Source of the DNA: Mayamaea pseudoterrestris
Lineage: Eukaryota
DNA: 64,000 nucleotides
Direction of reading: 5' to 3'
Assembly (NCBI GenBank): GCA_027923505.1
Contig: BROI01000027.1
Location: forward strand, 310,001 to 374,000
The position numbers were made by a program, and so were the translations under genes. The notes under the pieces are model-generated. The model was not told where the DNA came from, made no database searches, and saw only the letters and a list, made by a program, of their open reading frames with translations. This document shows positions 23,535 to 63,487 of the stretch, in pieces (position 1 is the stretch's first letter; each line of letters starts with the position of its first letter).

Positions 23535-24689
23535 ATGCGATCTGTTTTGCTTGCATTTGTATTGACGGGTTCCGCAGCGGCGTTTTCAAATTGTCCATCC
23601 AAAATCTCGCACAGAACACCAGCAACGTCGCGTCAATGGCAGTCATCGGTTCGACGTTCCGCCGTCAATGGAGCGACAGCGACGGCAGATCCGTCCAACG
23701 CAACAAGCGACAAAAGTAAAGCAGATTTGATTAAAAGCATTCGACTGAATGTCAATGAACAGGCGCGAACCGTGACAGCCGTCTGCACCTCCGGAACACT
23801 TTGTACACTGTCGTCGCACGGAGGACTTGAGGGCGCACCCTTTGGATCACTCGTCGACTATGTACTTGACGATCAAGGCTGTCCGGTTTTGCTAATGAAT
23901 GACATGTCCATGCATACAATCAATATTCAAAAAGCCATGCAAGAGAGCTCCAATCAAGGCCAGTCGGCCCAAGCCATGGTGACACTCTTTATCCAACTGG
24001 GCAGCAGCAGTCAAACGGCCGCCAGTAGCAGTACCGGCAAAAGCAGCAATCGGCAGCAGGATGTTTCACGATGCAGTGTGACTGGGAATTTGGTAAAGTT
24101 GGACATGAAGAATACGGCAGACATGGATATACTGCGACTACGATATTCGCTGACGCATTCCTATGCTGATCAAGTATTGGATTCGCCAAAATTCTCCTTG
24201 TATCGATTGGTACCAACTGCTATTTACTACGTTGGTGGCTTTGGAGTCCAAGCGACATGGGTGGATCCGCAAGAGTATCAACTCGCCAATCCCGATATTC
24301 TCGCGACGGAAGCATCCGAGATTCTTCGCAAACTGAATCAACCAACGCACTGGGACGACTTGAGACTTACGGCGCAGCAAGTATTGGGCTTGGTAGACCA
24401 AGAGATTGAAACTATTCGAGTCACGACAGTGGATCGATTGGGAATGGACTTGCGAGTCACAACGCAGGCGGCTGGGTCACGACGAAAGACCAAGTTAGAG
24501 ACGAACGAGTATCGGATTGGCTTTCGTATTCCTGTTCGATCCGTTGAGGATGCCAAGAGTGAGATACTAAAAGTGTTCCAAGAAGCATGGGAAGCGGCAA
24601 ATTGGCCGGATGATGACGACGATGACCAAGGCGCTGTGGACGCGAATAGAATACCTTTTGTCAAGATTGCTGCGGATAGTTTGCAGTAA
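23535..24689 (+). CDS. Plastid-targeted glutamyl-tRNA reductase-binding protein / HugZ-like split-barrel protein
   Basis: Bipartite presequence MRSVLLAFVLTGSAAA-F; SGTLCTLS...GAPFGSLVDYVLDDQGCPVLL, YYVGGFG, A.PD.LA, VDRLGMDLRV, EYRIGF...VEDAKSE. Confidence 0.8.
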   Translation: MRSVLLAFVLTGSAAAFSNCPSKISHRTPATSRQWQSSVRRSAVNGATATADPSNATSDKSKADLIKSIRLNVNEQARTVTAVCTSGTLCTLSSHGGLEGAPFGSLVDYVLDDQGCPVLLMNDMSMHTINIQKAMQESSNQGQSAQAMVTLFIQLGSSSQTAASSSTGKSSNRQQDVSRCSVTGNLVKLDMKNTADMDILRLRYSLTHSYADQVLDSPKFSLYRLVPTAIYYVGGFGVQATWVDPQEYQLANPDILATEASEILRKLNQPTHWDDLRLTAQQVLGLVDQEIETIRVTTVDRLGMDLRVTTQAAGSRRKTKLETNEYRIGFRIPVRSVEDAKSEILKVFQEAWEAANWPDDDDDDQGAVDANRIPFVKIAADSLQ

Positions 24690-24917: not shown

Positions 24918-27900
24918 TCAAGCGTTTTTGGCGGAACTGTATTGCTTGTGCTCGCCATGTTGCGACAACGCCTCGCGCCAAGACGCTTGACGACCCGGGT
25001 TTACAGGTCTACTCGTGCTGAGGATTTCAGAAGGTTCTGCAACGTTGTCGATACTTTGCCGCATCAAAGGCTTGCGTCTTTCCATGTCAACAAGCCTTCC
25101 AGAGCGCAAGTCCGGATGATTCTCATCCTGCGCTTCGCTTGGCTGCAAATTTTGTAAGCTTTTGCGCAATGCTTCATTGATTGAGGTAGGCTGAGTCATT
25201 TTCTCCAAAAATGCTTCATCAACGACAAAAGATTGCGCAACTTTTCTGCGCGCGTGCAAAACTTCTGCGCCAGGATGCTCAGTAGGAGAAGATAATGTCC
25301 TCCAAGCTGCCCGAAGACTGTCGACAGGAAGGCCTTCCAATACTTTTTCCGTCGTTGCGGGTGTTTCGCCAACAAAAGCGCCATTTACAGTGTTTTTAAA
25401 GGCTACAGCATCGTGGCTTCCGTGGTTTCTTGAGACCGTACTTCCCGAAACACTGAATCGTTTCTTAGATACCTTTTGATTCTTACTGTCAGTGCGCTCG
25501 ATTGGTCTCGGAGCGTTTCTTTGCCCAACCTTGCGGCCTTTTGCTGTTTTGTTGTCTGCGCCGAGCCCCATGCTCATCGTCTTTCCCGAAGATTGCCTTC
25601 TCACAAGCGCATCTTTTAATGTCATAATCGCTCCAGTTCGATTGGAAGCTCGTTCAAAAGCATTCAATCCAAGTTTAATGGTTTTGCTCGCAGCTAGGAG
25701 AGTTGTCGGTGTGTAAGAAGGAGTGTATGCTCGGTCGATAAGCAGTTTGTCATCACTTTGAGCCAACAGCTTGCCTTTCCCGAACAATTTCGAAAGTACG
25801 CTCCTACCGTCATTGATAGATATCATTTGATCCTCCACATGAAACCGATGACTTGACTGGCTGTGTTTTAAGATTATTCTTTGGCCGACCAGTCCACCCA
25901 GTAGAAAAAGTGCTAGCAGTATCATTGCTCCAGCCATGCGTCCTTTACATGTCACGTCGGTATACCTTAGGCGAGCATCTCCACCATGACGCGTAAAATG
26001 ATCGGAGGTCGCCGAGTCGAAAGAAGTTAACTGCTCATCCGTGTCAATCTGATCAAGCAAGTTCGCTCGCCCCTTCTTCTCATTCGAAGGTGCACTCGAA
26101 GGTGTATAATTGCGGACCTGAGGTTGAACCGGACAATTATTCCCTTCACACGTCGCATGAGGTGTAGAAGAAGAATCCATTTTGCTCGTTATGTATGTTC
26201 CATAAGCCCTTTGGATACAGAGCGCAGCAGCTCGTCGTTTCAAATTCACCCCGTGAGCCAAATAACGCCGCCAAGAAGCTTGAATAACAGTTGCTCGCTG
26301 CTCAAGTAGAACCTGCCGTTTGTAGACGTTTCTCGCCTTTTGGAAACGCATTGCGCGCAGCACGATACGTGCAGAATGCTTACGTCGCACAAAACCCTTG
26401 AGAGCACAATAACGCCGCCATGCAGCTTGTACAGTCACAGCCTTACTTTCCGACCTATCGCTGCTGTTATTGCCGCACTGATTTTTCGTGATATTTTCCA
26501 GGTGGTCCGGCATTGTTCCAAAGGACGGTTCAGCTTCGGGCTCAGTCGCAGACATTTGATGCTGCCTATTTCCGAGCAGATTTCTGTTTGCTTCGTCTAT
26601 GTTGGAAGATATTAAAAGCATTGGTTCGTCGTCTGTCAAAATCATCAAACCTTCTGCCATAGCTTTTACAGCCTTTCTTTCAACGCTGATTAATGGCGAC
26701 CCATGCGCATCATGCCTTTGCCAGGCACACTGTCCTTGCCGAGATGCGCTAATCTCATCGGCAAGGCATACACTCTCCAGTCCACACACCGGTTGTCGCT
26801 CGGTAGCTTTATCTGGCGCGCTCAATGCCGTCACGGGGCTTGGAACGGTCGCGACAGGTATTTGGCTGCCCCTGACCACTGTTAAAGGCTTCCATTTAAG
26901 CAAGGCCCCTTTAGAATATAAATTGTCTTGATTGGAAAGTCGTGGAGAGAGATTTTTTCCTGTAGACTCGGGGACCCACTTCCTTCGGAAAAACATGGAT
27001 GTGACAATGAGCATGTTGCGTGTGCGTAACCGCCGGCAGAGTTTCCGACAAAGCACGCACCGTATGAAGCTTTGGATTAAAACGGCAGCAGCCGTCGCGC
27101 ACCTCCCTTGTTGGGAAGCAATGTGCATTCGTACCGTAGCTTGGATTTTGATCGCGGATCGACGTTGAGAAGAGTATCGACTGCAGCACTGAACCTTCCG
27201 CCAATACCGCTGTACTGCCAAAGCACTGAGATGCACTTTCTCCAGCTTTACTTCCTCGTACACCAACCGCGCTTGATTGCACCGATACATGCACTGTATT
27301 TTGGTTGTTGCGACGACTCTCGCCAACGACTCTTTGCGACACTTATAACGTCGCCAGTATTCAATGATCAAAATGACAGCCTCGGTTCTTCTAAGCAGTA
27401 AAAATCTTTCTGCCGTACGACACAAGTGACCCCGCAAGGTAGCTTGAATTTTCTGGGCCCCTCGTTTACGAACAATCATCTCGCGCAATAGGGCTCGACA
27501 TTGATGAGCCCGAACTTGAGCTTGCAATTTTGTGCAATTGGCTTTACTCGTACGGAATGACCTCTTCGCCAAAAAAAGGCGCACGTTGCTTTGTATTTGC
27601 ACTGCAGACCTTGACATAGCTAAAGTGATCGATCGCAGCAATTTGACGTGCTTCACAGCGAGTAATCTTCGAAAGAATGATTGTATTTGTAAGGCGGCCA
27701 AACGCCTCTGATGTAGCAATCGCATTGCATGACGCCGCCGAACCCAAGTCTGCAGAACAACAGTTGATTGTCTCGACAATTTCAAAGCCTGATGCGCAAG
27801 CTTGCGTCGCCATGTCGTTTGTATTTGAATTGCGGAAGCTTCTTTACGCAGCGCCTCAGAGCGTAAACGAGCGAGTCGGGTTATCGCCCGCAATCGGCGA

Positions 27901-30386
27901 ACTCTCCGACGAGCTTGATATTTTCTAATCGAACTCTGCATCTTTATCACAGCAGCATTTTGTTTGACAAGTTGCCGAGAAACTCGATGGCGTCTGACGC
28001 AGGCTTGGATAGTGATTGCAGCTTTCTTGGCTGATTGGTAAGCCGACCGTGCTGCAAAGCTTCTCCAATAACAGCACATCATTAATGACGCCTTGTTACG
28101 CAAGTTTTGCGCACGAAGTTGCGCTGTCGCAAGCCGCGCCAAACGACCCCGCACAGTAGTTTGAGTTTTCACAATTATCGCTCGTTGCCTTTGGAAAACC
28201 ATCATTGCGCTGCGCCTTCTTATGACCGATTGTAGTAACAGAATTGCAGATTGACGAGTTCCAAACAGTTTCTGAGCTAAAAGCCTGCGCAAGCAGTTTT
28301 GAATGGTAATTGCTGCCGCGTGCTGCTTTACACGAGCAATAAGTTTGATGGTCTGACAACGCTCGATGTGGCCACGAACAACAGCTTGCACAGAAATCGC
28401 TGCCATATGCTGCTGCGCCCGACCAAGTATGTCAACAGTTTGACAACGAGCAACATGACCACGAATTGCAGCTTGGAGTTTAATGGCTGCCATGTGTTGC
28501 TGTGCGCGCGCAATAATGTCGATGGTCTGACAGCGAGCAACATGACCGCGAATGATGGCTTGTATCTCAACTGCTGCCTCATGCTGCTTCACTCGAACTA
28601 AAACACCTTTAGCTTCACGCCGTACAAGATACGCCCGGGTCACAGCTTGTAGCCTCTTTATCACTCCTTTGTATTTTGCAAATTGTCGTTCATGCTGATT
28701 CGCTCGCAAGCAAGCTTGAATCTTAACCATAGATCTTTTGGCAAGCAAATACCTTCGTGTAAACGCTGCAGCTCGCCACATGCTGGCAAGTTTGGTGGCT
28801 GCCATTGCTTGTCGAACGCAATCATACAATTCAATTGCTCTGTGTCGTTCATGGCTTCCTCGAATTACAGCTTGAAGCCGTATCACTAAAAGTAAACGCC
28901 TTTGGAAGCAATCTACCGCATGGTTTCGACGAATATGAGCTTGAATAGTAATGATGCAGAGTCGAACAATTCTCCAATGCTTCCGCTGCAAATGGCACCG
29001 AAGCAAGCATTGGATTTTAGTGGCTGCATTCATCATCTGATTGGCTGTCCACCTGAATTTAGCCTCCCGTCTCGCCACGCAGCCTCGTTGAAACGCTTGA
29101 ATCGTCAAAGCGGCAGTTCCTTGTTCGTCAAGCAATCGAACAACCCAAAAACGCCGCCAGCAAGATTGTAAACGCCTTGTGGCAATCAAAGCAGTCACTA
29201 AATTTTGCTGCGCATGCCATGTTCGACACTGAGATTGTACTACAACGGCGGCCAGCGTCACTCTTCTCCGCGTACATATAACAGTGGCGCGCCTCCGCTC
29301 ACAATGTCCGCGCAGCACGGCCTGCAATTGCATTACAACTACCACTCCCTGAAGATACTGTTTGATGGCTAGATATCGTCTTATATTGGCTTGAATTGTA
29401 GTTGCCGCTTGCTTTGCAGCTTGAAACGTTCGTTGCGCTTTGTAGCGCCGCCAAGCATTGGCAATGTTCGTCGCTGCCAGCAGTTTTAGTTGTATTCGAC
29501 GAAACTTTAGATTGCAGCCATGCACTTGATGCAAATACGTGACGGCCGCCGCTCGATCAGCTACAAAGTCTCGCGTCTCTTGATGCGCTCTCCAAAAGTC
29601 TTTCATCGCTCGCACTGCCGCAGCAATTCGTTGCCGCGCGCGTCGGGTGGAAACGTTGGTGCGAGCCGCAAAGCGGCGAAACAACGACTGAATCATGATC
29701 GCACTGGAGCGACATTTTTGAAACGTTTTCACGGCAATGTAGCATCTCACTTGACTCTGCACGGTAACAATGGCCTGATGGGCCCGCCCGACGCTGGGAT
29801 GCAGTCGACGCAGCGTCAGATAGAGTCGTTCCGCCAAGTAGCACCTCCACGTAGCTTGTATGCGTACAATGGAGCATAGCTGCACGCGCCGTCTCATTTG
29901 CTTGACAATATTGACAATCGTTCGATCAATATTGCCTCGAAACAGGGCTTGCATAATGGTCGCCGCGTACTTTTGATCAAGGTAGTTGCTTCGCGTTGAA
30001 TAGGCGCGCCACAGTGCTTGCCACTGGATGGCGGCGTCTCGCGTCTGAATCAGTAGACGCAATTTCGCGGCAAACCGCAGTCGCTCCAGTCTGGCTCTCA
30101 CAAGCGACTGCGATTGAATGACGGCGCGACGAAATTTTAAGTAACTTGATTGCGCCAAGAATGTTCGCACCACCGACTGCATGACTTGCACTGCCTGTTG
30201 CAGGCGCATGAATTCCGCTTCACCGAGACAGAGACGCATGAGGCGCTCCGCTTCCAAGGCAGTCATGCTGGAAGTCATTGTATTCATGCTTTGCATGGAC
30301 TGAATCGTCGAGTCGTCGGCATTGTGTAACTGAAATGCCGACTGCTGCTGCTGCTGCTGTCGCTCTCGTTGAATTCGGTCGGACAT
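24918..30386 (-). CDS. Giant poly-IQ (ASPM-like repeat) protein with C-terminal TM helix
   Basis: 1822-aa ORF with dozens of IQ motifs (IQAIIRGHVAR, LQAAIRGHVAR, IQATLRGHLCR); TM segment MAGAMILLALFLLGGLVG. Confidence 0.9.
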   Translation of the reverse strand: MSDRIQRERQQQQQQSAFQLHNADDSTIQSMQSMNTMTSSMTALEAERLMRLCLGEAEFMRLQQAVQVMQSVVRTFLAQSSYLKFRRAVIQSQSLVRARLERLRFAAKLRLLIQTRDAAIQWQALWRAYSTRSNYLDQKYAATIMQALFRGNIDRTIVNIVKQMRRRVQLCSIVRIQATWRCYLAERLYLTLRRLHPSVGRAHQAIVTVQSQVRCYIAVKTFQKCRSSAIMIQSLFRRFAARTNVSTRRARQRIAAAVRAMKDFWRAHQETRDFVADRAAAVTYLHQVHGCNLKFRRIQLKLLAATNIANAWRRYKAQRTFQAAKQAATTIQANIRRYLAIKQYLQGVVVVMQLQAVLRGHCERRRATVICTRRRVTLAAVVVQSQCRTWHAQQNLVTALIATRRLQSCWRRFWVVRLLDEQGTAALTIQAFQRGCVARREAKFRWTANQMMNAATKIQCLLRCHLQRKHWRIVRLCIITIQAHIRRNHAVDCFQRRLLLVIRLQAVIRGSHERHRAIELYDCVRQAMAATKLASMWRAAAFTRRYLLAKRSMVKIQACLRANQHERQFAKYKGVIKRLQAVTRAYLVRREAKGVLVRVKQHEAAVEIQAIIRGHVARCQTIDIIARAQQHMAAIKLQAAIRGHVARCQTVDILGRAQQHMAAISVQAVVRGHIERCQTIKLIARVKQHAAAITIQNCLRRLLAQKLFGTRQSAILLLQSVIRRRSAMMVFQRQRAIIVKTQTTVRGRLARLATAQLRAQNLRNKASLMMCCYWRSFAARSAYQSAKKAAITIQACVRRHRVSRQLVKQNAAVIKMQSSIRKYQARRRVRRLRAITRLARLRSEALRKEASAIQIQTTWRRKLAHQALKLSRQSTVVLQTWVRRRHAMRLLHQRRLAALQIQSFFRRLLAVKHVKLLRSITLAMSRSAVQIQSNVRLFLAKRSFRTSKANCTKLQAQVRAHQCRALLREMIVRKRGAQKIQATLRGHLCRTAERFLLLRRTEAVILIIEYWRRYKCRKESLARVVATTKIQCMYRCNQARLVYEEVKLEKVHLSALAVQRYWRKVQCCSRYSSQRRSAIKIQATVRMHIASQQGRCATAAAVLIQSFIRCVLCRKLCRRLRTRNMLIVTSMFFRRKWVPESTGKNLSPRLSNQDNLYSKGALLKWKPLTVVRGSQIPVATVPSPVTALSAPDKATERQPVCGLESVCLADEISASRQGQCAWQRHDAHGSPLISVERKAVKAMAEGLMILTDDEPMLLISSNIDEANRNLLGNRQHQMSATEPEAEPSFGTMPDHLENITKNQCGNNSSDRSESKAVTVQAAWRRYCALKGFVRRKHSARIVLRAMRFQKARNVYKRQVLLEQRATVIQASWRRYLAHGVNLKRRAAALCIQRAYGTYITSKMDSSSTPHATCEGNNCPVQPQVRNYTPSSAPSNEKKGRANLLDQIDTDEQLTSFDSATSDHFTRHGGDARLRYTDVTCKGRMAGAMILLALFLLGGLVGQRIILKHSQSSHRFHVEDQMISINDGRSVLSKLFGKGKLLAQSDDKLLIDRAYTPSYTPTTLLAASKTIKLGLNAFERASNRTGAIMTLKDALVRRQSSGKTMSMGLGADNKTAKGRKVGQRNAPRPIERTDSKNQKVSKKRFSVSGSTVSRNHGSHDAVAFKNTVNGAFVGETPATTEKVLEGLPVDSLRAAWRTLSSPTEHPGAEVLHARRKVAQSFVVDEAFLEKMTQPTSINEALRKSLQNLQPSEAQDENHPDLRSGRLVDMERRKPLMRQSIDNVAEPSEILSTSRPVNPGRQASWREALSQHGEHKQYSSAKNA

Positions 30387-32504: not shown

Positions 32505-33581
32505 ATGAGCGATAGTAAGCTTGTCGGAGGATTGAAGCGAGAGAAGCAGCCGCCGGTACAACGAGTATGAGTGAACATTGCGTTCAGATTCAGATTGGCT
32601 CAAACGAAGCTTTCACTAATAAATTTGCCTCCTTTCATTCCAATGCTTGTTTAGCTTTCATCAGCAGAAACTCCTCCTGTAATATTGATGCTTGCTCACG
32701 ACGTCTTTTGCTGGCACGCCCCAGCACGTCTTCCAGTACCTTTGTTGTGATGAAATCAAGAGTTGCTTGGATTTGGCACGTGGAAGCAAGACTCTACACG
32801 AGCATTTGAACTGCAGGCTCAGTTCTGCAGCCACCATAGAACAAGACTCGAGATTGATGCGGAGGAGCCATTCTGTGTGGACGGTTGCATGGAGCTGCAA
32901 GATCATTTTCGCTGCAACAAGTGTAATGATTTTTATCATGGATCGGAGCTTGGCTGTGGATATTGTGGATGAACGCTTTGCTCCGCATGCGGACCTGTCC
33001 TCACCTGTGAACGCTGCCAAAATGACCATCACATTGATTGCGTAGGGTGTCATCGCATTGGGGCGTGTGATTACTGTCGTGAGAATGCCTGCTCTGATTG
33101 TGCGCCTACGTGTCAAGTTTGCACTAAAATCTGCTGTAACGACCATCCCCTCTCCCATCTGCGCCAATGCAATAAATGCGACAAGTCTGTCTGCGACTGG
33201 AAGCCGTGCAGTAATACCTGTCATTGGTGTTTAGACACTTTTTGCACGACTACGAGCTGTTGTGGACTTGTCAAGTGCGGGGATTGCAGCCAAGAAGTTT
33301 GTGAAACCTGTCAGCAACATATTAATAATGGTCCATGGATTTATGAGTGCGCCAAATGCTTGCGCCGCTCTTGTGAAAAACCTGGCTGTCGTCCCTTCAG
33401 AACCTGCGAATTGTGTGGTAAACGTTACTTCGACGACTACGACGACTGCAACTTTCTCAAGTTTTGCACGTGCAGGCACTCTGTATGCTGCAGCGACATT
33501 CGCTGCGGCGATGGCTGCAAAATTCATTCTCAATGCAAAGATTGCATTACCATGTGCGCCAAGTGTCCACACGGGGTATAA
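32505..33581 (+). pseudogene. F-box-like plus CxxC-repeat Cys-rich protein pseudogene
   Basis: ATG 32505; putative intron gtatga...tttag; F-box-like LMLAHDV../QHVFQYLCCDEIKSCL broken by frameshifts; long CxxC-rich frame with in-frame TGA at 32970-32972 continuing to TAA at 33581. Confidence 0.6.
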
Positions 33582-33713
33582 CGTATCTAAGACAAGCAGT
33601 ATTCTGGCTATCGAACCACAGGCGGATCCTTTGGACCTATATGGATCTTTTGAGGAATACAACCCTAACCCTGAGAAGGAGCGCTCGCATACCAATCAAT
33701 AGCGTAACAATAC

Positions 33714-34390
33714 TAGCAGGTATGCAACAGAAAGTAGTATCACTATGCCGTTAAAAGTAGCGCACCTCGGAATCGAACCAAGGATAACCGGCTATATCAC
33801 CTCTAAACACGCTGCTACTTTTCCGTCTGCTAGTGTACTATATGCTGCATACAAGGCACCATGCACTATGACAAGTAAAGGTATCGCTCTGGTTGCTGTT
33901 TTTCGTGTGCAACCTGCTACTCCCCTAGCTTTGCGCGTCATAGTGCTAACTCGTCTTCCGTTTCAGCTGGCATTTTCGTCTCGCGGGGGAATGTCACTTT
34001 TCAGTTTTTCCTGCGGCGTTTCGGGCTCGGCGCATCTTTGTGCACTCCCCAGGGTCCGCGACTCCCCATCGTTCGTTCGTGACAAACCCGTGCAACCAGT
34101 GAATTTTTTGCTTTTTCTTCGCTTGATTCGATCGCAACTCGAACCAGCAGCCTCAGTCCAGATCTCTCGATAGGGACGCTACCATAGCAGGTATGCAACA
34201 GAAAGTAGTATCACTATGCCGTTAAAAGTAGCGCACCTCGGAATCGAACCAAGGATAACCGGCTATATCACCTCTAAACACGCTGCTACTTTTCCGTCTG
34301 CTAGTGTACTATATGCTGCATACAAGGCACCATGCACTATGACAAGTAAAGGTATCGCTCTGGTTGCTGTTTTTCGTGTGCAACCTGCTA
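33714..34390 (-). mobile_element. TRIM (non-autonomous miniature LTR retrotransposon)
   Basis: Two identical 206-bp direct repeats (33714-33919, 34185-34390) with TAGCAGGT...ACCTGCTA ends; 265-bp non-coding interior; minus-strand PBS TGGTAGCGTCCCTA (34184-34171); purine tract AGGGGAG next to the 3' LTR; flanking duplication ATAC (extendable to AATACT). Confidence 0.9.
33753..33822 (-). ncRNA. tRNA-like Pol III module in the TRIM LTR (second copy 34224-34293)
   Basis: Minus strand: AAAAGTAGC...GCTACTTTT closing stem, T-arm CCTTGG-TTCGATT-CCGAGG with perfect B-box GGTTCGATTCC, weak A-box-like TGTTTAGAGG, and a TTTT tract. No complete anticodon arm. Confidence 0.55.
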
Positions 34391-34700
34391 ATACTTCATA
34401 TGCTTCATCTGCTTATTACATGGTTTACCCATCTACATTAGGTCACTCGCTACCCTTGCGGTGACATTCATAATTGAAATAATAATTGTTGAAGGTTTTT
34501 GGGATCCATTGTTTCGCGGTGCAACGAAACGATTCAACGACGACCACACGCTGACATCGCGATTCAACGATGACCACACGCTGACATTGCTCCGCGATCG
34601 CACCATTATATTATATCTTTCATTGTTTCATCGTTTGAAACAACAGCTGTCCGCAGCCATCCTTCTCGTCGCCCTTCGAATTGAACAGAAACTCACAAGC

Positions 34701-36369
34701 ATGGGGAAGAAAGAAGACTATTGGATGCCGTTGGCAAGACAGTGGTATCTAGAGTCGGAAGGAGTTCGAGACGAAGAGAAAATGACTGCGGCGCAATTCC
34801 TCGAGTCAAAAAAGTTTGATCCGAATGAGATCAATAAAGCGAAGCGTTCCCTGTTGTATTATCATCAGATGTATGCACAGGACAAGGTGAAATATGATAA
34901 ATTGTATGGAAACGTTGCTGGTGCTACCGCTACACGTCGAACTAAACCTCAGTTCCCTGAATTTGAGCAGCAATTTGTTTATCGAGTTTCTAAGATGTGT
35001 ACTGTTGGGTTGAGCCTTGAAGTCTTGCACAAATTTGCCTTGGAACTCATGAAACAGTTTCCAGATGCGAAAAGACCCAAAGCAGCATCGTCGAGATGGG
35101 TCAGGGATGTGCTGGAACGCAACAACATGACTAGAAGCACTAATCCTTCGCTCAAGATCATTCACCCCATAGTAGGCAACGATAATCATGACGACATGGT
35201 CAACGTCATATTGCCAGAGCTTGAGAAGGAGGTTTGTCAACCTGCCACTATTGCCAACTTGTGGACGCGAATTGCACACAATGACAAGTCACTCATGGGC
35301 ATTCTTGGCCAGCGGTAAGTCTCCTTTGCTTTGTTTGTACCAGCTTCTGCAACAATAACTGAACTTTTTGCTGGCTAGAATTGAGCTCTTTGTAGCCAGG
35401 GTCAGAAAGCTTCCAACAACAGCATTCGATCTGATCGCCAAGAGGATCTGCCGGTTACCAGAGCTGTCAGTCGAGGGTTTGCGAACGAAACTTATTGACT
35501 ACATTGAGTCGCAGACAAAACTTGATGAACGTCTTGCCCATCATGTCATTTCCTACATTGCCATTATTCTGTCTGTGGGAAAGAATCAAGAGGTTCTGAA
35601 AGAGGCAGCAAAGCTTGTTAGCACGCAAGTGTTGAACAAATTTGAGCTGGGAGATGGCGATGCCAAACAATACATGCATCTTGATTCCGTGAATCCAAAC
35701 TGCCAGATTGTTGTAGCTATTTCTGATGAGATTCCTCCGACAAGAATTTATACTGGTACACTCAGCTGTTCAAATTGGGGTTTGTTGTTTCTCGCAAGGA
35801 AGTGGAATGAATACCCGCCCACTTTGCATTACAAACTTGACAAGCACCCTTCGGATATGCTGCTCACCCATGGCTCTCTCTTAGATCCAAAGCTGACCTT
35901 GGTGCCTTCATCGGGGCTACTCCGTCGAGGCGACACCACTACAATGCCCGGTGTTGTTGTTCATGCTGGCCCATCTTGTGACAAAGTCCACTGCATTTTG
36001 TTTAGCACTGGCGCTCCTCATGATACTAAGGGAGCCTACGATCCGGAATCCCAGTACTGCGCCTCTCAAGTATTTGCCGAGCTAACTGAAGAAGTGTTAC
36101 TATTATACAACGCTGACACTAAGCAGTTTCTCCTTGACCATGCTGAACGAGTCTTTTTCCTTAACAAGCTGGTTGAGTTTGAAAAGGAAGGCAGACTAAA
36201 GGGGACTGGCAAAACTTGGTATTGGCTTGACCATAAATTGTTTATCTATGGCTTTTTAGAACACTTAAGTGTCATTCTCGTGGACGACACAACTGATGGG
36301 GATACTGGCCCACTTGTGGACTTCTGGGCATGTAAAATGCCTCCACTACAATCGCAGGTGCCTTGTTGA
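34701..36369 (+). CDS. CENP-B/Tc5-type HTH fused to a putative 2OG-Fe(II)/cupin-like domain; 2 exons (34701-35314, 35379-36369), about 534 aa
   Basis: KPQFPEFEQQF...GLSLEVLHKFALEL...KAASSRWVRDVLERNNM fits HTH_Tnp_Tc5; 64-bp GT-AG intron joins the frames; QYMHLD...GVVVHAGP gives an HxD...H triad. Confidence 0.65.
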
Positions 36370-36402: not shown

Positions 36403-36791
36403 AGTTAAGGTATCTTCGGATCGGGTTCATATCTCTCCGGTACTCCGGGTCCGTTTCGACACCCATCATGTGTGGTCGGAATGTTCTTCATGTTGCTTGC
36501 TTCACCATGGCAACGCCTTGCTAGTAAAGGCATGCCCCAACCTCTCGCAAGCATGGTTACACTGTCAAACGGTCTATAATTACATAGGGAAGCAGTTGAG
36601 GCGATCCGTTTGGCATGCATAACTGTAGTTTTCGCCCAACGCCTCGGGCGATGGTTTTGCAACTTGTTCGCTCAAATCTCGCTCACAATCTGATAGTCTG
36701 GTTGGTCCATAACACTATAAAGCAACAGTTGCATTTCACAAAGCATCTCCTTTCATCGTACTCAAGTAGATTGCATCAAGCATTCTTCACT
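36403..36791 (+). repeat. 5' LTR of the copia element (AGT...ACT termini)
   Basis: Direct repeat of 44342-44730; terminal IR AGTTAAG/CTTCACT. Confidence 0.95.
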
Positions 36792-36922
36792 GGTTACGAG
36801 CCCAAGTTAAAGCCTTACACGCCAACGTTTCCCTCAAGCAAACGATTCCTTTTACGTCGGGACGCCGCCGTTTAAACAAGCCAACAAGCCTTTGATATCA
36901 AGCTCCATACCCTGCAAGAAGC

Positions 36923-39900
36923 ATGTCGACACCTACTACTGCTCCCCAAGACACTGAACCGGCCGAGGATCCGTTTCAGCCCGTCCTCCCCAAGAAAAAG
37001 CGCAACCCTGCTCCAAAGGATGGAGAGGGTCCAGTCCCTGCTCCAAAGGATGGAGAGGAACCCCCGACGCCGTCTCCAAAGGTTGGAGGCAAGCCATGGC
37101 CTACACCTCCCCGCGCTCCCGCTCCTGCTCCCGCTCCCGCTCCAGCTCCGGCGCCCGTCCCGCCGCCTGCTCCTGCTCCTCCAGCCCCTCCGGCGCCTCC
37201 AGCTCCTCCAGCTCCTCCAGCTCCTCCGGCGCCTCCAGCTCCTCCAGCTCCAGCGCCTCCTGCCCCGCCTGCTCCTCCTGCCCCGCCGGCAGACGAGCCG
37301 CCTGAAGATCCAGGCGCCTTGGCAGCAGCCGTGGATGCGGATCGCCCCCCTAAACCAGTGCACGGTGCACTTTGCAAATTGGAAAAGAAGTACATCCCCT
37401 ACACTGGCGGTGAGCCGGCCCGTGACTTTGCCGAGTTCCCTCAGCCGGCCTACACCATCCGTCCGTCTCCATTGGCTCGCCTCCGGTTTGATGATGCCAA
37501 GCTCACCGGTTGGAATGCCCGTACCAAAGGACTGTCGCAAAAGCTGTCCTTAAAGGGCGACCTGCTCGCTTGGGAAATGCAGGTTGAGGAGCATCTCGTC
37601 ACCCATGGAATGGACACCATTGTGCACCTTGATCACCCTTTGGATGACAAGCAAACCGTCTCCATTATCAAGCACAGTGGGCTTTTCTTGACCACCGAAG
37701 AGGTCATCCGTCATCTCGAGGGACCCAAGAAGACCTGGGACCCTTATGATGAGGCCAATGATGATGAGGCCACCACATTCCTTCGCAATTCCATTGATTC
37801 CGAGTTGCTCAAGCGCCTCATGTACCAGACGCCCGGTGGCAAGAAGGAGCCCTTTGTCATCACCTTTTCCCGTGTCATGTCAATGATGCGCCAGCACAAC
37901 CGCGAGGTTCACCACCGCATTGAACGGGAGGCGGTGGCCATCCGTCCCCAAGCTTTTGCAGGCCAAAACATCACTGCTTATGCGACCGCTGTACTGGACA
38001 AGCTCAAGCCTCTATTCAATGCCTGCACCTACAATCATGATACCACCGAGGAGCTCATCATGGCCCTAAACACCGCAGGAGGCGAGTGTTTGAAGGAAAA
38101 CCCTGGTGAGCTGGCCTTCCGTGAGGCGCTTTACCCCTTCAAAAAGCGTTACTATAAGGCCCGCCTAGAGCTCCGCCCCATGCGTGAAAGTGAACGGCAT
38201 TTCTACATGGCGGAACAGCGGTGCCTGCCTGAAGACCTCTTTGCTGATGCCATTGCCTCCTATGACGTCCTCTGTTCCAAGCAATTGTGGCAGCCTGCCC
38301 GCAACCGCACGGATTCGCGGGTTCCCCAAGCCAATCTCCTCGAGCTCAATACCAAGTCCCAGAGCTCCTCCCGCTCCACCCTTGCCCAGCGCGGCTGTTT
38401 TGTATGCGGTTCCATGGCTCACCAAATTGCCGACTGCCCCAAAAAGGACGAGCATTTCAACCCGAAGAAGGATGGTGGTTCCAACGGTGGTGGCTCCGGT
38501 GGATCCAGCAAGCCCTCCCATTCCGGTTCTGGTCGAGGCAACCAAGGCAACCAAGGCAAAGGCAACTCCTCCCGTCAGAACAATAATGGCAAGGGCAACA
38601 AAGGCAACAACAACCGCTCCTCCAACGGCAAAAAGGGCCGTTCCTCCTCCAACCAGGACTCCAAGCTCTGGTGTGGCTATTGCACTCGGTATGGCACCCA
38701 TTGCACCAAGGAGCACAAGGACACGCGCACCATGAAGAACCCACCCAAGGAGCCTCCTACTCATCAGGCAAACCTTGCAAATGTGCATGATCCCAATGAG
38801 TGGGTGGTCCCTTATGTTAACCTGGCGCAAGTTGAGTTCCAAAAGCGCTGGTCTGCCCCGTCGCCTGATCCTGCCACTGTCCCAGTTGCTGCCCCACTTG
38901 TGAACCGTTGGGTGGCGCCTCCTCGCATCATTCCTGATGGCCCTCCTACAGTTCCTCCTCCCGTGGCTGCAGCTCCTACTGTCATTGATTTAACTGAAAC
39001 GGTTGTGGATTTGACCCTTGACGGGGGATCTGACAGTGAATCCGGTCACAGTGCCTCCACTCACAGTGCCTCCACCGTTCCCAGCACCAACAAGGCAAAG
39101 CGCCCTGCTCGGTCCCACAGCAGTCCCTCTCGGTTCCCCAAGTCTGCCAAGATTGCTGTTGGTACCTTGCTCCTTTTGAGCCTGTGTGCTCCCAAGGCTG
39201 ATGCATTTGCCCCGTTTGTCGCTCTCCGCCCTGCTGTGACCCCAGCTCCAAGCCCTACACTCAGCCAAGTTTATGAGTGGTTTCCGCCCGTGTTCACCCC
39301 AGTTCCTGAGCCTGCCTTGCCTACCGCCACCATTCACCTTCAGGAGACTGCCTCTCGGTTTAAGGAAGCCATTGGTGTGCCTGTGCCTGCCGTCACCCTT
39401 CTGGCCTCCTCGCTCCTTGAGCTCGCCAGCTCCAGCCTCTCCCTTGTGCATGCCACCCTCTTCTTCTACTGGATGCACTGGGAGCTCATTGAACCTTTCA
39501 TTTTGTGGTTCCTCCTTGCTGGATTGGTTCTCCTCGGCTGCTGGTACCGCGCCGCCTACCGCCGCCTTCGTCGAGGCCTACTTGGCTGCCAACCTGCTCC
39601 ATACTTGCGGCGCCTCCTCCTGCCTTACCGTGCCTACCGCGCCTTGAGTCGCACTGCCTGGCGAGGTATTCAAAGGTCTGTCTGGTGGGAAGCCTTCCTT
39701 TTGATGGATCATCTTGACCGGCGCCTCACACGGTGGTTTGCTCGGCACTTTGCCTACTGGCTCTCCTACTGGCCTGCCAACGGGGGAAGATGCCATGCGA
39801 GGCCTGCGACTGTCCCTTTACACCTTCAACGGGCACTCCTGGATCCAAATGCAATGATTGGCCAGTATGTACCTGCCTCTCCCCGCAACAAGCGCCGCCG

Positions 39901-42900
39901 CCGCCAGCGCCGCAACAAGTGCGACCGCTGTGTTGCTGTGGCTCCTCCTCCTCCTCCGCCGCCTCTTCCAGTCCCTCAAGTCCCTAAATCCCGCCGTCGA
40001 GGCCGCCGAGGCCGAGGCCGAGGCCGTTCCCGTAAAGGCAAGTCCCTTGGAAGAGACCAGTCTCGCAGCCCCTCCCGTGATCCTAAACGGGGGAATACTT
40101 GTCAACCCAGCACGAGACCAAGCCATCTGCCAAGTCCATCACCAGACGCCGTTCACGTCCCTCCCATTAGCTATCTTGCTTCTGCCTACGTCTTGAGCCT
40201 TTCCTCCTCTGAGCGAGAGGCATTGCCCGACTGGATCCGTCAGACATTGGCAGCCATCCGCCGCAATCCTAACTTCATTGACTCTAAGCCCAAGGCTAAA
40301 GAAGAGCAGTTCAAAGTGATTTGGGATTCAGGTGCCAGCATCTCCCTTTCTCCATGCCGCTCTGACTTTGTTGGTCCAATTGAAACGCCTCCTGAGGGAG
40401 CATTTATCAATGGATTGTTTCAACCTGGTCGCATTGCAGGCAGGGGATGTGTTGCCTGGACCTTCCTTGACAATGGAGGCATGCGGCGCACCCTCAAACT
40501 CCCTGCATATTACGTTCCTACTGGAAAGGTTCGGTTGCTCAGTACCTCCAACTTGCTGCAGCAATACCCAGAGGAATTCATCTATGGAGATGAGCATGCT
40601 ATCTACCTAAGTGGAACCAAGTCTACCACGCATGAGGATGGATCCATTACCAACAATGGGATTGAAGTCTTGGTGGATCCTGATTCAAACTTGCCCACTG
40701 CCTACGCCATTGACAATGATTCTGGCCCAAATGCCTTTTACATCGATCCTGGAACACCTGGCCCTCCATCTGGTCCAGCGCCAAGCTCACCTTCTGACCA
40801 ATCACAAGGCGAAGGAGGTTCAAGTGGCTCATCTCCTGGTTCTCCACAAGGCCCTCGAGACCCTGATCCGCCTTCTTCTCCCCCATCTGGTGCGCCAAGT
40901 GCTCCAGGCTCTCCATATTGCCTAGCAGTCACCCCAGCTCCTTCCGTCCTTTCAAACATCAACAAGAATCTCAGTGAGTCTGAAAAGGAGCTCCTTAGAT
41001 GGCATTTCCGCCTTGGCCATCTCGCCTTCAACCGGATCCAGTTCCTGATGCGCAGTGGCACCCTCTCCCATTCAGAGGCCCAGCGCAGGCTCCATGCCCT
41101 TAGCTCCCGCATCATTCACCCTCCAATGTGTGCTGCCTGTCAATATGCCAAGCAAAAGGTCCGCGCAACCCCAGGCATTCAGTCTCAAGCAGTTAAAGAC
41201 CGAGCGGGTGTCCTACGGCGCGACAATCTGTTTCCAGGGCAGCGCGTCAGTGTGGACCACTTCATTTGCTCTACAAAAGGCCGCCTATTCAACTCTAGAG
41301 GCAAGTCTCAAGAAACTGAGCTCTTCAGTGGTGGTTGCATCTTTGTGGATCATGCTACTGGCTTTGTCCACATTGAGTTCCAGAAGCACCTCAATTCTGA
41401 CGAAACGCTTGCAGCCAAGGAGGCCTTTGAGCTCAAATGCCGTGACTTTGGAGTCCTTCCTCAAGAGTATCTTTCAGACAATGGAAGAGCCTTTACCTCC
41501 CAAGCATTTGCGCAGCATTTGTCCACCTTTGCTCAAGTTAGCAGGTTTGCTGGCACTGGAGCCCACCATCACAATGGCATTGCAGAGCGCAGTATCCAAA
41601 CAATCATGAGCATCTCGCGTGCTATGATGCTGCATGCCTCCATCCACTGGAGTGAAGTCTCTGATCCTAATCTGTGGCCCATGGCCTGCAGCTACGCCGT
41701 CTTCCTTTGGAACAAGATGCCAGACCTGCAAAGCGGTGTGAGTCCCCATGACCTCTTTACCAGGACTCGCTGGCCTCAAGCCAAGTTCCATGACCTCCAT
41801 GTATGGGGATGCCCAGTGTATGTCCTTGAAAAGCGCCTTTCTGATGGCCAGAAGCTTCCAAGGTGGTCACCCCGCTCCAAGCGCTGCATCTTCATGGGTA
41901 TGAGCGACAGTCACGCCAGCTCTGTCCCTTTGGTCCTAAATCCTGCAACAGGAGCTATTACGCCACAGTTCCATGTTGTCTTTGATGACTGGTTTGCTAC
42001 AGTTACCTCGGAACCGTCCAGTTTGCCTGACTTCAACACCCCAGCCTGGGACAAGATGTTTGGCGAAAGCGCCTACCAGTACATTCCAACCGACGAACCC
42101 GAGTCTCTGCCTGCAACACCGGATGATGCTACACCTCCCATTACTGAAGCTGCAAGTCAAAGGATCGACAGGGTACAGAATGCCTTCGAACGCAACAGTC
42201 CCCCTTGCGTCCTTCCCATTCCGCCTCCGCCTGAGCCAACCTGGGCACAGCTTCCGCCAGCACCGGCGCCAATGCCAGCTACGCCAGCGGTACCAAGAGC
42301 GCCCAGTCCTCCTCCTACAAGGGCGCCAAGTTCGCCTCCTACAAGGGCGCCTAGTCCTCCTCCTGCAAGGGCGCCTAGTCCGCCTCCAACAAGGGCGCCA
42401 TCTCCCATTTTGCACGACCCAAGGGCGAACGAATCCGCACCTCCGTCGTCACCTGCACCTCCGCCGGCTCCAGCTACACAGCATGAACCAAGACGCTCTA
42501 GTCGCTCCAATTTTGGCGTTCAACCCGATCGACTTACCTACCCGCGCCTTGGCCTTCCGGCTATGTTCGCCTACACTGAAAAAGTGGCTGAGTATGCCCA
42601 TTTTGCCTCCCTGTATTCCGCCTTCCGCATCCCAGCGCCAGCCATTTACAAAGCTGCTGCCTCTGACCCCGACACCCTTTCCTGGGATGAGGCAATGTGC
42701 GATGTCTCTCACCGAGATCACTGGCTCAAGGCTGCAGAAGGAGAAATCACATCCCTACAGTCAAAAGGCACATGGATTGAAGTCCCCAAGTCTGAGGCCA
42801 AGAGCAGGATCATCCCCGGCACCTGGGTCTTCCGCCGCAAGCGTTCACCCGATGGCACAATCAAGAAGTACAAAGCTCGCTTCTGTGTCCGTGGTGACCT

Positions 42901-44245
42901 TGAGGAAGGCTCATTTGACACCTTTGCCCCGGTTGTGGCCTGGTCTACCATTCGCCTCCTCCTAGTGTTTGCCCTGACCCTTGACTGGCATGCCTGCACC
43001 GTCGACTTTGCAAGTGCCTTTGTCCAAGCTGAGTTGGATAAGCCAGTTTGGATTCACATTCCTCGAGGTTTCAACTCAAGCAAAGGCCCCAACCACTGCC
43101 TGCGCCTCAAGAAGAGCCTCTACGGCTTGTCCGTTGCACCCCGACTCTGGTTTCAACACCTGTGCAGCGCCTTGAAAAGCCTTGGTCTCATACAAAGCTC
43201 CTTTGACCAATGCTTGTTCTTTGGCCTTGGTCTAGTGTGTGGGTGCTATGTCGACGATTTAGCTATCATTGGCAAGACTCCAAAGGTTGTCAACGACTTT
43301 GTTGCAAAGCTCCGGTCCCTTGGTCTTGAACTCACTCAGGAAGACTCCCTTTGCGAGTACCTTGGCATCAAGCTTGTACGTGATGATGCTAAAGGGACCT
43401 ACACTCTCACCCAACAAGGATTGATTGACAAGATTATCACTGCCACTGGCCTTGCTGAGTCCAACCCCAACAGTGTCCCTGCTACCCAGCTTGCCCTTGG
43501 CACCGACCCCGATGGAGCCTACATGCAAGAAAGCTGGTCCTACCCTTCTGTTGTTGGCATGCTCCTCTATCTTGCCATCAATACCCGCCCAGACATTGCC
43601 TACGCCGTCAGTCAAGTGGCACGTTTCAACCATGGTCCCAAGCAGACTCATGCGAGAGCTGTTAAAACGATTGTCCGTTACCTCAAGGGATCCCGCACCA
43701 TTGGCACCGTCATGAAGCCAAATGGTTCCTTCAATCTTGATCTATATACAGATGCCGACTATGCTGGTTTGTATAAACAGGAACCCGACCATTCTGCTAC
43801 AGCAGTCCGCTCTCGTACAGGCTACATCATTCTTCTCGGTAGCTGCCCGCTTGTTTGGAAATCCCAGCTACAGACCGAGATTGCCCTTTCAACTCTGGAA
43901 GCCGAGTACTGTGCACTCTCCCTTGGTCTTAAAGCCCTTCTCCCTCTCAAGCGCATCCTTATGGAAGTCCTTCAGACCCTCCGCCTTCCCAGTCCTACAG
44001 CAACTTGCGTGAGCGCTCGTGCCTACCAGGATAACCAAGGCGCCTTCTACCTTGCCGTCAATAAGCGCCTCACCAACCGCACCAAGCACATGTTGGTCAA
44101 GTTCCATTGGTTTTGGCGCCACCATGAGCAAGGCGAATTCTCTATCTGCATGGTTAAGTCAGCCGATCAGCTGGCAGACTACCTCACCAAGGGTCTCTCC
44201 AAGGATGTGTTCCTCAAGAACCGCAGAAGCGTCCAACACAATTAA
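36923..44245 (+). CDS. Gag-Pol polyprotein (Gag, zinc knuckle, PR, INT, RT, RNase H; copia domain order)
   Basis: CFVCGSMAHQIADC; VIWDSGAS protease; WHFRLGH...CAAC; integrase VSVDHF/SDNG/GIAERSI; RT YVDD; RNase H YTDADYAG...EAEY...DNQGA...LADYLTK. Confidence 0.97.
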   Translation: MSTPTTAPQDTEPAEDPFQPVLPKKKRNPAPKDGEGPVPAPKDGEEPPTPSPKVGGKPWPTPPRAPAPAPAPAPAPAPVPPPAPAPPAPPAPPAPPAPPAPPAPPAPPAPAPPAPPAPPAPPADEPPEDPGALAAAVDADRPPKPVHGALCKLEKKYIPYTGGEPARDFAEFPQPAYTIRPSPLARLRFDDAKLTGWNARTKGLSQKLSLKGDLLAWEMQVEEHLVTHGMDTIVHLDHPLDDKQTVSIIKHSGLFLTTEEVIRHLEGPKKTWDPYDEANDDEATTFLRNSIDSELLKRLMYQTPGGKKEPFVITFSRVMSMMRQHNREVHHRIEREAVAIRPQAFAGQNITAYATAVLDKLKPLFNACTYNHDTTEELIMALNTAGGECLKENPGELAFREALYPFKKRYYKARLELRPMRESERHFYMAEQRCLPEDLFADAIASYDVLCSKQLWQPARNRTDSRVPQANLLELNTKSQSSSRSTLAQRGCFVCGSMAHQIADCPKKDEHFNPKKDGGSNGGGSGGSSKPSHSGSGRGNQGNQGKGNSSRQNNNGKGNKGNNNRSSNGKKGRSSSNQDSKLWCGYCTRYGTHCTKEHKDTRTMKNPPKEPPTHQANLANVHDPNEWVVPYVNLAQVEFQKRWSAPSPDPATVPVAAPLVNRWVAPPRIIPDGPPTVPPPVAAAPTVIDLTETVVDLTLDGGSDSESGHSASTHSASTVPSTNKAKRPARSHSSPSRFPKSAKIAVGTLLLLSLCAPKADAFAPFVALRPAVTPAPSPTLSQVYEWFPPVFTPVPEPALPTATIHLQETASRFKEAIGVPVPAVTLLASSLLELASSSLSLVHATLFFYWMHWELIEPFILWFLLAGLVLLGCWYRAAYRRLRRGLLGCQPAPYLRRLLLPYRAYRALSRTAWRGIQRSVWWEAFLLMDHLDRRLTRWFARHFAYWLSYWPANGGRCHARPATVPLHLQRALLDPNAMIGQYVPASPRNKRRRRQRRNKCDRCVAVAPPPPPPPLPVPQVPKSRRRGRRGRGRGRSRKGKSLGRDQSRSPSRDPKRGNTCQPSTRPSHLPSPSPDAVHVPPISYLASAYVLSLSSSEREALPDWIRQTLAAIRRNPNFIDSKPKAKEEQFKVIWDSGASISLSPCRSDFVGPIETPPEGAFINGLFQPGRIAGRGCVAWTFLDNGGMRRTLKLPAYYVPTGKVRLLSTSNLLQQYPEEFIYGDEHAIYLSGTKSTTHEDGSITNNGIEVLVDPDSNLPTAYAIDNDSGPNAFYIDPGTPGPPSGPAPSSPSDQSQGEGGSSGSSPGSPQGPRDPDPPSSPPSGAPSAPGSPYCLAVTPAPSVLSNINKNLSESEKELLRWHFRLGHLAFNRIQFLMRSGTLSHSEAQRRLHALSSRIIHPPMCAACQYAKQKVRATPGIQSQAVKDRAGVLRRDNLFPGQRVSVDHFICSTKGRLFNSRGKSQETELFSGGCIFVDHATGFVHIEFQKHLNSDETLAAKEAFELKCRDFGVLPQEYLSDNGRAFTSQAFAQHLSTFAQVSRFAGTGAHHHNGIAERSIQTIMSISRAMMLHASIHWSEVSDPNLWPMACSYAVFLWNKMPDLQSGVSPHDLFTRTRWPQAKFHDLHVWGCPVYVLEKRLSDGQKLPRWSPRSKRCIFMGMSDSHASSVPLVLNPATGAITPQFHVVFDDWFATVTSEPSSLPDFNTPAWDKMFGESAYQYIPTDEPESLPATPDDATPPITEAASQRIDRVQNAFERNSPPCVLPIPPPPEPTWAQLPPAPAPMPATPAVPRAPSPPPTRAPSSPPTRAPSPPPARAPSPPPTRAPSPILHDPRANESAPPSSPAPPPAPATQHEPRRSSRSNFGVQPDRLTYPRLGLPAMFAYTEKVAEYAHFASLYSAFRIPAPAIYKAAASDPDTLSWDEAMCDVSHRDHWLKAAEGEITSLQSKGTWIEVPKSEAKSRIIPGTWVFRRKRSPDGTIKKYKARFCVRGDLEEGSFDTFAPVVAWSTIRLLLVFALTLDWHACTVDFASAFVQAELDKPVWIHIPRGFNSSKGPNHCLRLKKSLYGLSVAPRLWFQHLCSALKSLGLIQSSFDQCLFFGLGLVCGCYVDDLAIIGKTPKVVNDFVAKLRSLGLELTQEDSLCEYLGIKLVRDDAKGTYTLTQQGLIDKIITATGLAESNPNSVPATQLALGTDPDGAYMQESWSYPSVVGMLLYLAINTRPDIAYAVSQVARFNHGPKQTHARAVKTIVRYLKGSRTIGTVMKPNGSFNLDLYTDADYAGLYKQEPDHSATAVRSRTGYIILLGSCPLVWKSQLQTEIALSTLEAEYCALSLGLKALLPLKRILMEVLQTLRLPSPTATCVSARAYQDNQGAFYLAVNKRLTNRTKHMLVKFHWFWRHHEQGEFSICMVKSADQLADYLTKGLSKDVFLKNRRSVQHN

Positions 44246-44341
44246 GCTCCTGCTACTTCTTCTACATCACTACACCTCTACATTCAAATAACTACATTTT
44301 ACATTCCCGTTCCTATTTGCCTGCATTCAAGCGCAAGGGCG

Positions 44342-63357: not shown

Positions 63358-63487
63358 TGGTGATAACGAGAATGCAGTTGGAATGGGTAGCATGGCTGCC
63401 AAGACAGAAGCCAATGGGTCTCTTTTGAATCAACACAAGCTCAAGGAGGCAACAAACTGTGGCAGCAGCAAAGGCAGCAACTGTTAG
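62150..63487 (+). pseudogene. Paralog of the acidic-repeat protein with a premature TGA
   Basis: Same MNMDHNPPFDAAPAV start; CGA in the left copy corresponds to TGA at 62273-62275. Confidence 0.7.

Follow-up and report, generated by a model that had tools for sequence, protein, structure and literature searches.

We analyzed a 64,000-nucleotide stretch of DNA from the diatom Mayamaea pseudoterrestris (GenBank assembly GCA_027923505.1, contig BROI01000027.1, positions 310,001 to 374,000 of the forward strand), hereafter called the window and numbered from its first letter. The long, uninterrupted open reading frames (ORFs) of the window include those of a nucleoside transporter, of IQ-motif proteins and of a CREG-like protein. 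Between positions 33714 and 34390 lies a non-coding long terminal repeat (LTR) retrotransposon of 677 bases, which is almost certainly a terminal-repeat retrotransposon in miniature (TRIM) of the diatom that has moved recently. Each of its LTRs contains a unit of 83 nt that resembles a tRNA and that, judging from its sequence, probably derives from one. Whether the element is a young, mobile and non-autonomous TRIM of the published Helenus type, with this unit driving the predicted transcription by RNA polymerase III (Pol III), appears to us evenly balanced.

Anatomy and recent insertion of the element

The element is bounded by two direct repeats of 206 nt that are 100% identical and spaced 471 nt from start to start. 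With the internal region of 265 nt, the whole TRIM measures 206 + 265 + 206 = 677 nt, which is below the size limit of about 1 kb for this class. In the sense orientation, on the minus strand, the LTR reads TAGCAGG...CCTGCTA and thus begins and ends with a terminal inverted repeat of 7 nt. A primer-binding site (PBS) abuts the 5' LTR, a purine tract of 7 nt adjoins the 3' LTR, and the same four letters stand on either side of the element as a target-site duplication (TSD; Table 1). The minus strand was taken as sense because neither a TGG-type PBS nor a purine tract appears when the plus strand is read. The flanking repeat can be extended to 6 letters, as the end bases of the LTR happen to match. 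We assigned the terminal T and A to the LTR, leaving a TSD of 4 bp, because an LTR contig from the public sequencing run X1 (see below) ends exactly at the repeat borders.

As required of a TRIM, the element has no coding capacity, its longest sense ORF spanning 65 amino acids. An antisense ORF of 142 amino acids matched no Pfam family, and a protein search aimed at diverged copies found no relative of it among 47 candidates. The hammerhead ribozyme, a hallmark of retrozymes, was absent from the Rfam matches at E ≤ 10 for positions 33600-34500. An earlier note on this DNA had listed the identical 206-bp LTRs, the PBS, the purine tract and the TSD, and had classed the element as a TRIM. All four features are present at the element and, together with the shortness of the LTRs and the missing coding capacity, they bear out the class.

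Contigs from public sequencing runs, labelled X1, X2, X6 and X7, were aligned to positions 33300-34800. In run X1, a contig of 2287 nt (depth 32.8) links position 33708 to 34390, skipping 681 letters (677 + 4), with 0 differing letters over the 655 that align. The identity of the two LTRs and this empty allele in another sample together indicate recent movement, as the earlier note had already proposed from the LTRs. The same run holds a contig of exactly 206 nt that spans the 3' LTR at a depth of 3938, and internal-region contigs at depths of 1980 and 2412, compared with 32.8 for the flank. The LTR is thus about twice as deep as the internal region, and both lie 60- to 120-fold above the flank. 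Contig depth is a rough hint of many copies and not a copy number; by this measure, the TRIM family looks multicopy. Loose contig ends in run X1 belong to at least two diverged LTR relatives. At a T run at 34104, the window copy is one T longer than the contigs in all four runs and so differs by a single homopolymer base from the common form, reflecting either a change private to this copy or an assembly error in the homopolymer.

We also looked for further copies. A blastn search of the TRIM against the 64-kb window gave self matches only (next best E 0.43), and the window contains no second TATGGTAGCG. Metagenome contigs scanned for the LTR start, a gap, and the LTR end plus PBS gave 0 matches, as did viral contigs scanned for the LTR end plus PBS and for the LTR start.

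Run X1 additionally contains a second, diverged version of the flank (33465-33638 and 34400-34445, with 10 differing letters out of 122). In this version 33638 is joined to 34400 with 24 other letters between them, and the TRIM is absent there too; it may represent a second haplotype or a paralogous copy. In runs X2, X6 and X7, which carry other organism labels and belong to one study, a contig of 500 nt covers LTR and internal region at 100% identity bar the T run at 34104. Its length equals the 471-nt cycle plus the k-mer overlap, and the flanks are uncovered in these three runs. The contig could come from the same organism at low coverage, from tandem or circular forms, from library carry-over or from other hosts. 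Finally, a 30-nt tandem duplication with 93% identity lies 140 nt to the right of the TRIM (34530-34589).

Table 1. Features of the TRIM and its borders, in window coordinates; the sense strand of the element is the minus strand
Feature	Position	Strand	Basis
TSD, left copy, ATAC (plus-strand letters)	33710-33713	.	flank repeat and empty-site contig
3' LTR, 206 nt	33714-33919	-	100% identical to 34185-34390; 206-nt run X1 contig spans it exactly
T4 run of the 3' LTR, beginning two bases past the acceptor stem	33753-33756	-	sense-strand T-run count
tRNA-like unit of the 3' LTR (length 83 nt; variable arm long; anticodon loop 8 nt)	33757-33839	-	ARAGORN -ps95
B box GGTTCGATTCC within the T arm CTTGG-TTCGATT-CCGAG	33769-33779	-	motif scan and ARAGORN drawing
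A-box-like stretch TAGCAGACGG, LTR positions 88-97	33823-33832	-	motif scan
Purine tract AGGGGAG	33920-33926	-	abuts the 3' LTR
Internal region, 265 nt, sense ORFs ≤65 amino acids	33920-34184	-	ORF list
PBS TGGTAGCGTCCC	34173-34184	-	directly after the 5' LTR
5' LTR, 206 nt	34185-34390	-	identical to the 3' LTR
T4 run of the 5' LTR	34224-34227	-	sense-strand T-run count
tRNA-like unit of the 5' LTR; B box 34240-34250, A-box-like stretch 34294-34303	34228-34310	-	ARAGORN and motif scans
TSD, right copy, ATAC	34391-34394	.	flank repeat and empty-site contig

Structure and origin of the tRNA-like unit

Within each LTR, about 80 nt of U3-like sequence precede the 83-nt unit (LTR positions 81-163), which is followed by a run of four T (T4; LTR positions 164-167) and a tail of 39 nt that leads into the PBS. 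In the window, the perfect B box within the unit is confined to the minus strand of the two LTRs, and the two matches count as one independent occurrence (0.12 expected per window). At 95% of its default threshold (-ps95), ARAGORN made exactly two calls in the window, namely the two LTR units, in the sense orientation and 83 nt long each. Lowering the threshold to -ps90 added nothing, so that both of the calls made (2/2) were still the LTR units.

The structure drawn by ARAGORN has an acceptor stem, AGTACAC/GTGCGCT, with one A·C mismatch and one G·U pair, followed by T8, A14 and a D arm with GG in its loop. An anticodon arm is present, with a 5-bp stem and an 8-nt loop labelled 'Stop|Leu', as is a long variable arm with a 4-bp stem, as in Leu/Ser-type tRNAs. 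After the T arm, whose stem has 5 bp, come the discriminator A, a C and TTTT. By manual count, 16 of the 25 stem pairs are Watson-Crick pairs, 6 are G·U and 3 are mismatched; the six G·U pairs fit a tRNA that has decayed by transitions. In a diverged LTR variant from run X1, seen over 30 letters at a loose contig end at 34296 and about 70% identical by eye, the anticodon stem retains its two strands around a loop of the standard 7 nt, again by eye.

The unit is thus drawn as a decayed full class-II cloverleaf rather than as an anticodon-less hairpin. In this respect we depart from the earlier note, which had seen no full anticodon arm and had placed the unit at 33753-33822. A unit is indeed there, but this extent is too short. 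The sense-oriented T arm with a perfect B box that it described stands in both LTRs, as do its TTTT tract and its 9-bp closing stem (AAAAGTAGC/GCTACTTTT), the latter being an alternative pairing of the 3' strand of the unit that is preferred in the minimum free energy fold. An A-box-like stretch was also rightly reported, although a better match, TAGCAGACGG, lies upstream of the stretch considered there.

To estimate how often such calls are made by chance, we ran ARAGORN on 60 dinucleotide-shuffled windows, which together gave 0, 5, 55 and 383 calls at the default threshold, -ps95, -ps90 and -ps85, respectively. The chance rate at -ps95 thus comes to about 0.08 for a whole window and about 3e-4 for 206 nt. 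When the 17-nt T arm was kept and the rest of the LTR was shuffled, 56 out of 3000 constructs (1.9%) passed -ps95. Under a first-order Markov model, a perfect B box and an A-box-like stretch at tRNA spacing, with T4 within 30 nt, are expected about 8.5e-5 times per window, a figure for a pattern that was picked after the sequence had been viewed.

Several results weigh against a tRNA origin or a working promoter. ARAGORN at its default threshold found 0 tRNA genes in the window. Rfam gave no tRNA at the gathering threshold in the window, and none at E ≤ 10 when 901, 86 and 99 bases were searched; the matches around the TRIM at E ≤ 10 were to snoRNA and miRNA models only, at chance level. We also built a class-II covariance model on five tRNAs (4 Leu and 1 Tyr) of a single bacterial metagenome-assembled genome (MAG). 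These were what was left of 8 class-II tRNAs fetched, 2 Ser and 1 Leu having been dropped because their arms were misaligned by MAFFT. With this model, which is thin, bacterial and of low power, the LTRs scored 8.1 bits (E 7.4) and ranked 14-15 out of 17, below chance matches elsewhere in the window. Infernal thus gave none of the tRNA covariance signal that the earlier note had proposed to look for, neither with Rfam nor with the class-II model. Nor did a parent tRNA appear: a 21-mer of T arm and acceptor had one match among metagenome contigs, on a GC-rich contig with no tRNA, and a 20-mer of the same parts had one match among prokaryote genomes, again with no tRNA. The RNA folds no better than shuffled sequence (z -0.19 for the unit and -0.35 for the stretch from U5 to the PBS). 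The A box deviates from the usual form, having A where Y is usual and a single base between A14 and GG.

The unit does not qualify as a functional tRNA gene, given that it has no ARAGORN call at the default threshold, no Rfam match, an anticodon loop of 8 nt and three mismatched stem pairs. The case for its descent from a tRNA rests on the near-threshold ARAGORN calls, the motif set and the architecture of the LTR.

Published relatives, transcription and priming

TRIMs whose LTRs contain tRNA-derived sequences have been described as Helenus, which together with Cassandra and Ajax forms the group TRIMp3 (Kojima 2024, Biology 13:119, PMC10886601). The earlier note had spoken of a tRNA analogue of Cassandra. 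Such a TRIM is supported by our analysis, although as a class it had already been published under the name of Helenus. Helenus elements measure 311-1263 bp, have a PBS, a purine tract and duplications of 4 or 5 bp, carry a box A of the form TRGCY..YGG and a box B of the form GGTTC, and are mostly unable to encode a working tRNA (PMC10886601). The diatom element resembles them in its length of 677 bp, in its PBS, purine tract and 4-bp TSD, and in its boxes, TAGCA..CGG (one departure, A for Y) and GGTTC. As in Helenus, a sense-oriented tRNA-like unit that is not a working tRNA occupies the 3' half of the LTR and is followed by T4 and a short tail.

We read this layout by eye from the consensus LTRs in parts 1 and 7 of the 11 parts of the supplement of PMC10886601. 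Within these two parts, a run of at least four T soon after the tRNA-like part, and then a short tail, are found in 26 out of 26 complete fungal and 22 out of 24 complete animal Helenus LTRs. The internal region of three fungal families in part 1 begins with tggtagcg, and these are also the first 8 nt of the PBS in the diatom element, where TGGTAGCG follows the tail.

There are also differences. The host is a diatom, whereas Table 1 of PMC10886601 lists fungi, six animal phyla and the lycophyte Selaginella, and the words diatom and stramenopile have 0 occurrences in its main text. The LTR ends are TA..TA here versus TG..CA in Helenus, and the variable arm is long here. The tRNA part is more decayed and gives no Infernal signal, while Helenus was detected by Censor similarity to tRNA or SINE2 and by tRNAscan-SE. 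In the diatom element, the PBS has complementarity with the 3' end of the unit, which was not found in Helenus (PMC10886601). Our literature search returned no report of Helenus/TRIMp3 or of tRNA-like LTRs in diatoms.

With the plant TRIM Cassandra (as described in PMC10886601), the element shares a putative Pol III promoter and terminator of small-RNA-gene origin in each LTR. Its boxes, however, are the A and B boxes of tRNA type, as opposed to the 5S-type box A, intermediate element (IE) and box C of Cassandra; 5S rRNA had no Rfam match at the gathering threshold in the window and none at E ≤ 10 in 33600-34500. The tRNA-derived short interspersed nuclear elements (SINEs, here SINE2) likewise have a tRNA head that is decayed and carries A and B boxes. 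SINEs depend on long interspersed nuclear elements (LINEs), carry a LINE-type tail and have no LTRs, no PBS and no purine tract, whereas the TRIM has all three of these LTR-type features. For Helenus itself, the proposed origin is a SINE2 inserted into an LTR (PMC10886601).

Among diatoms, 27 'putative TRIM/LARD' (LARD, large retrotransposon derivative) and 13 'putative SINE' have been annotated in Phaeodactylum tricornutum (Rastogi 2018, PMC5859163). The former are also short non-coding LTR elements of a diatom, and tRNA-like LTR content is unmentioned in the portion of that paper covered here. The diatom copia-like (CoDi) elements differ in being autonomous and about 5-8 kb long, according to the sections of Maumus 2009 (PMC2806351) that we drew on. 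In the same sections, the CoDi element Blackbeard has a 4-bp TSD (TTCC), so a copia-like helper would be compatible with the 4-bp TSD seen here.

We tentatively propose, with a confidence that stays somewhat below an even chance, that the unit is a predicted Pol III promoter for the genomic RNA of the element. The A and B boxes would recruit TFIIIC and Pol III, and transcription in the 5' LTR would start slightly upstream of LTR position 81. Part of the polymerases would pass the weak T4 of the 5' LTR and terminate at its counterpart in the 3' LTR, so that the unit would form the terminal repeat R of the RNA, the 39-nt tail U5 and the first 80 nt U3. An autonomous LTR element would supply Gag, reverse transcriptase and integrase in trans; reverse transcription would be primed at the PBS, and integration would yield the 4-bp duplication. 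By analogy with Copia-39_PHord and fungal Helenus (PMC10886601), we infer an initiator-tRNA 3'-end type for the PBS. The two T4 runs are the only runs of four or more T on the sense strand of the TRIM. The lack of further runs fits the Pol III model, although it is not significant (P(0) = 0.52). A weak point that also counts against the model is that full-length RNA would require read-through of the T4 in the 5' LTR.

This weak point is shared ground with an unlikely, if still credible, alternative, in which an ordinary TRIM is transcribed by Pol II and the unit is a passenger, a fragment of a tRNA or tRNA-SINE that was captured in one LTR, was copied into the second and is no longer a promoter. 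The T4 of the 5' LTR would halt Pol III after about 95 nt, and Kojima calls the use of Pol III by Helenus inferred and unproven (PMC10886601). The decay of the unit (three mismatched stem pairs, the 8-nt anticodon loop and the deviant A box) is in keeping with a passenger, as is the missing covariance signal with Rfam and the class-II model. A passenger would not, however, be expected to keep a perfect B box while the rest is worn, and by eye the sense LTR has no AATAAA and no TATA box at the usual position. Moreover, the arrangement of unit, T run and short tail recurs in 48 of the 50 published Helenus LTRs read by eye in the two supplement parts, which argues for a function tied to the arrangement.

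That an ordinary TRIM has LTRs which resemble a tRNA by chance only is, in our judgment, improbable. Perfect B boxes and -ps95 calls are not very rare at the scale of a whole window (0.12 expected and 0.08 per shuffled window), about 250,000 windows were scanned overall, both Infernal tests were negative and the fold was not significant. Yet the match lies inside a 206-nt LTR, in sense and followed by T4, for which the rates are about 3e-4 per LTR and 8.5e-5 for the motif set. Even with the T arm given, few shuffles (1.9%) complete a cloverleaf that passes, and the diverged run X1 variant, on the 30 letters read by eye, keeps the anticodon stem with a 7-nt loop.

The complementarity between the 3' end of the unit and the PBS suggests another scheme. 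When the final 9 encoded bases, as far as the discriminator, are extended by CCA and set against the 12-nt PBS, they form 10 Watson-Crick pairs and 1 G-U pair, 8 of them contiguous from the 3' end; the chance of this for a random 9-nt end is about 1.4e-3, in a post hoc test. The unit could then be a separate small Pol III gene, terminated by its T4, and its processed, CCA-tailed RNA could prime the PBS of the element, in which case the TRIM would carry a gene for its own reverse-transcription primer. The CCA-tailed 3' end ...CGCUACCA anneals to the PBS at 11 of 12 positions, and the unit has promoter boxes of its own and a terminator 2 nt past the acceptor stem. We nevertheless consider self-priming very unlikely. 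As a PBS of initiator-tRNA type, TGGTAGCG is common in copia-like elements and also occurs in some fungal Helenus families (PMC10886601), and the host initiator tRNA is therefore the simpler primer. Kojima sought such complementarity in Helenus and found none (PMC10886601), the mismatch and wobble in the acceptor stem make processing uncertain, and this pairing is absent from the fold predicted for the U5-to-PBS stretch. The simplest explanation of the complementarity is coincidence with an initiator-type PBS.

We give hardly any credence to boxes that serve only as a TFIIIC landing site (a boundary, an insulator or a targeting cue) with no RNA of the element: a B box is a high-affinity TFIIIC site and the one here is perfect, but the sequence is silent on chromatin, insulation is of no evident gain to a selfish multicopy element, and the T4 and the sense orientation suit transcription better. 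The insulation inside heterochromatin that the earlier note had envisaged finds no support in the sequence, and the window holds ordinary long ORFs.

Neighboring sequences and significance

About 2 kb to the right of the TRIM lies an intact copia-type element on the plus strand (36403-44730), with identical LTRs of 389 nt (36403-36791 and 44342-44730) and a 5-bp duplication, CCCCA. It has a single ORF of 2440 amino acids (36923-44245) with integrase and RVT_2 domains. About 1300 residues precede the integrase domains, including Pro/Ala-rich repeats (37104-37317), which is far beyond the usual gag-protease part. As a candidate partner of the TRIM this element was rejected, since its LTR ends (AGT..ACT), its PBS-like start (GGTTACGAGCCC), the length of its TSD and its internal sequence all differ. 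With different LTR ends and PBS, and with only self matches in the blastn search of the TRIM, it is not an evident partner of the kind that the earlier note had suggested, which would share LTR ends and PBS with the TRIM. A single base separates the PBS-like start GGTTACGAGCCC of the copia-type element from ggttatgagccc, a sequence in fungal Helenus and Copia elements that Kojima assigned to the anticodon loop of the initiator tRNA (PMC10886601).

Several other features of the window were noted. The CREG/DUF2470 ORF (23535-24689) has a best relative with 71% identity, and its named relatives are diatoms (Epithemia, Amphora, Eucampia, a Bacillariaceae MAG and others). Two ORFs of 1822 and 1298 amino acids (24918-30386 and 11692-15588) have the IQ calmodulin-binding motif as their sole Pfam match, with E values of 2.5e-63 and 1.4e-12. 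Arrays of 21-, 24- and 15-nt repeats lie at 19643-20762, 45284-45752 and 62646-63387 within long ORFs (18882-20939 and 45241-46263 on the minus strand, 62312-63487 on the plus strand), and the 15-nt arrays at 45284 and 62646 both contain a spacing jump of 186 nt. At 57584-59608, two adjacent copies of a unit, about 1150 nt apart and 71-82% identical, give weak matches to the transposase family DDE_Tnp_1 (ORFs 57759-58454 and 58997-59608).

The design of the TRIM is known from fungi, animals and one plant as Helenus, and by the literature we found its presence in a diatom would be a new occurrence, as far as its sequence tells. If confirmed, it would extend the Helenus/TRIMp3 design to diatoms and would support the repeated acquisition of Pol III-type heads by LTR elements. 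For annotation, it suggests caution, because tRNA-like calls in diatom genomes may be LTR-borne. A different sample of the same organism lacks the insertion, which could therefore serve as a strain marker. A young family that looks multicopy, in an alga that can be cultured, may also offer a live system in which to address the question of whether such elements use Pol III.

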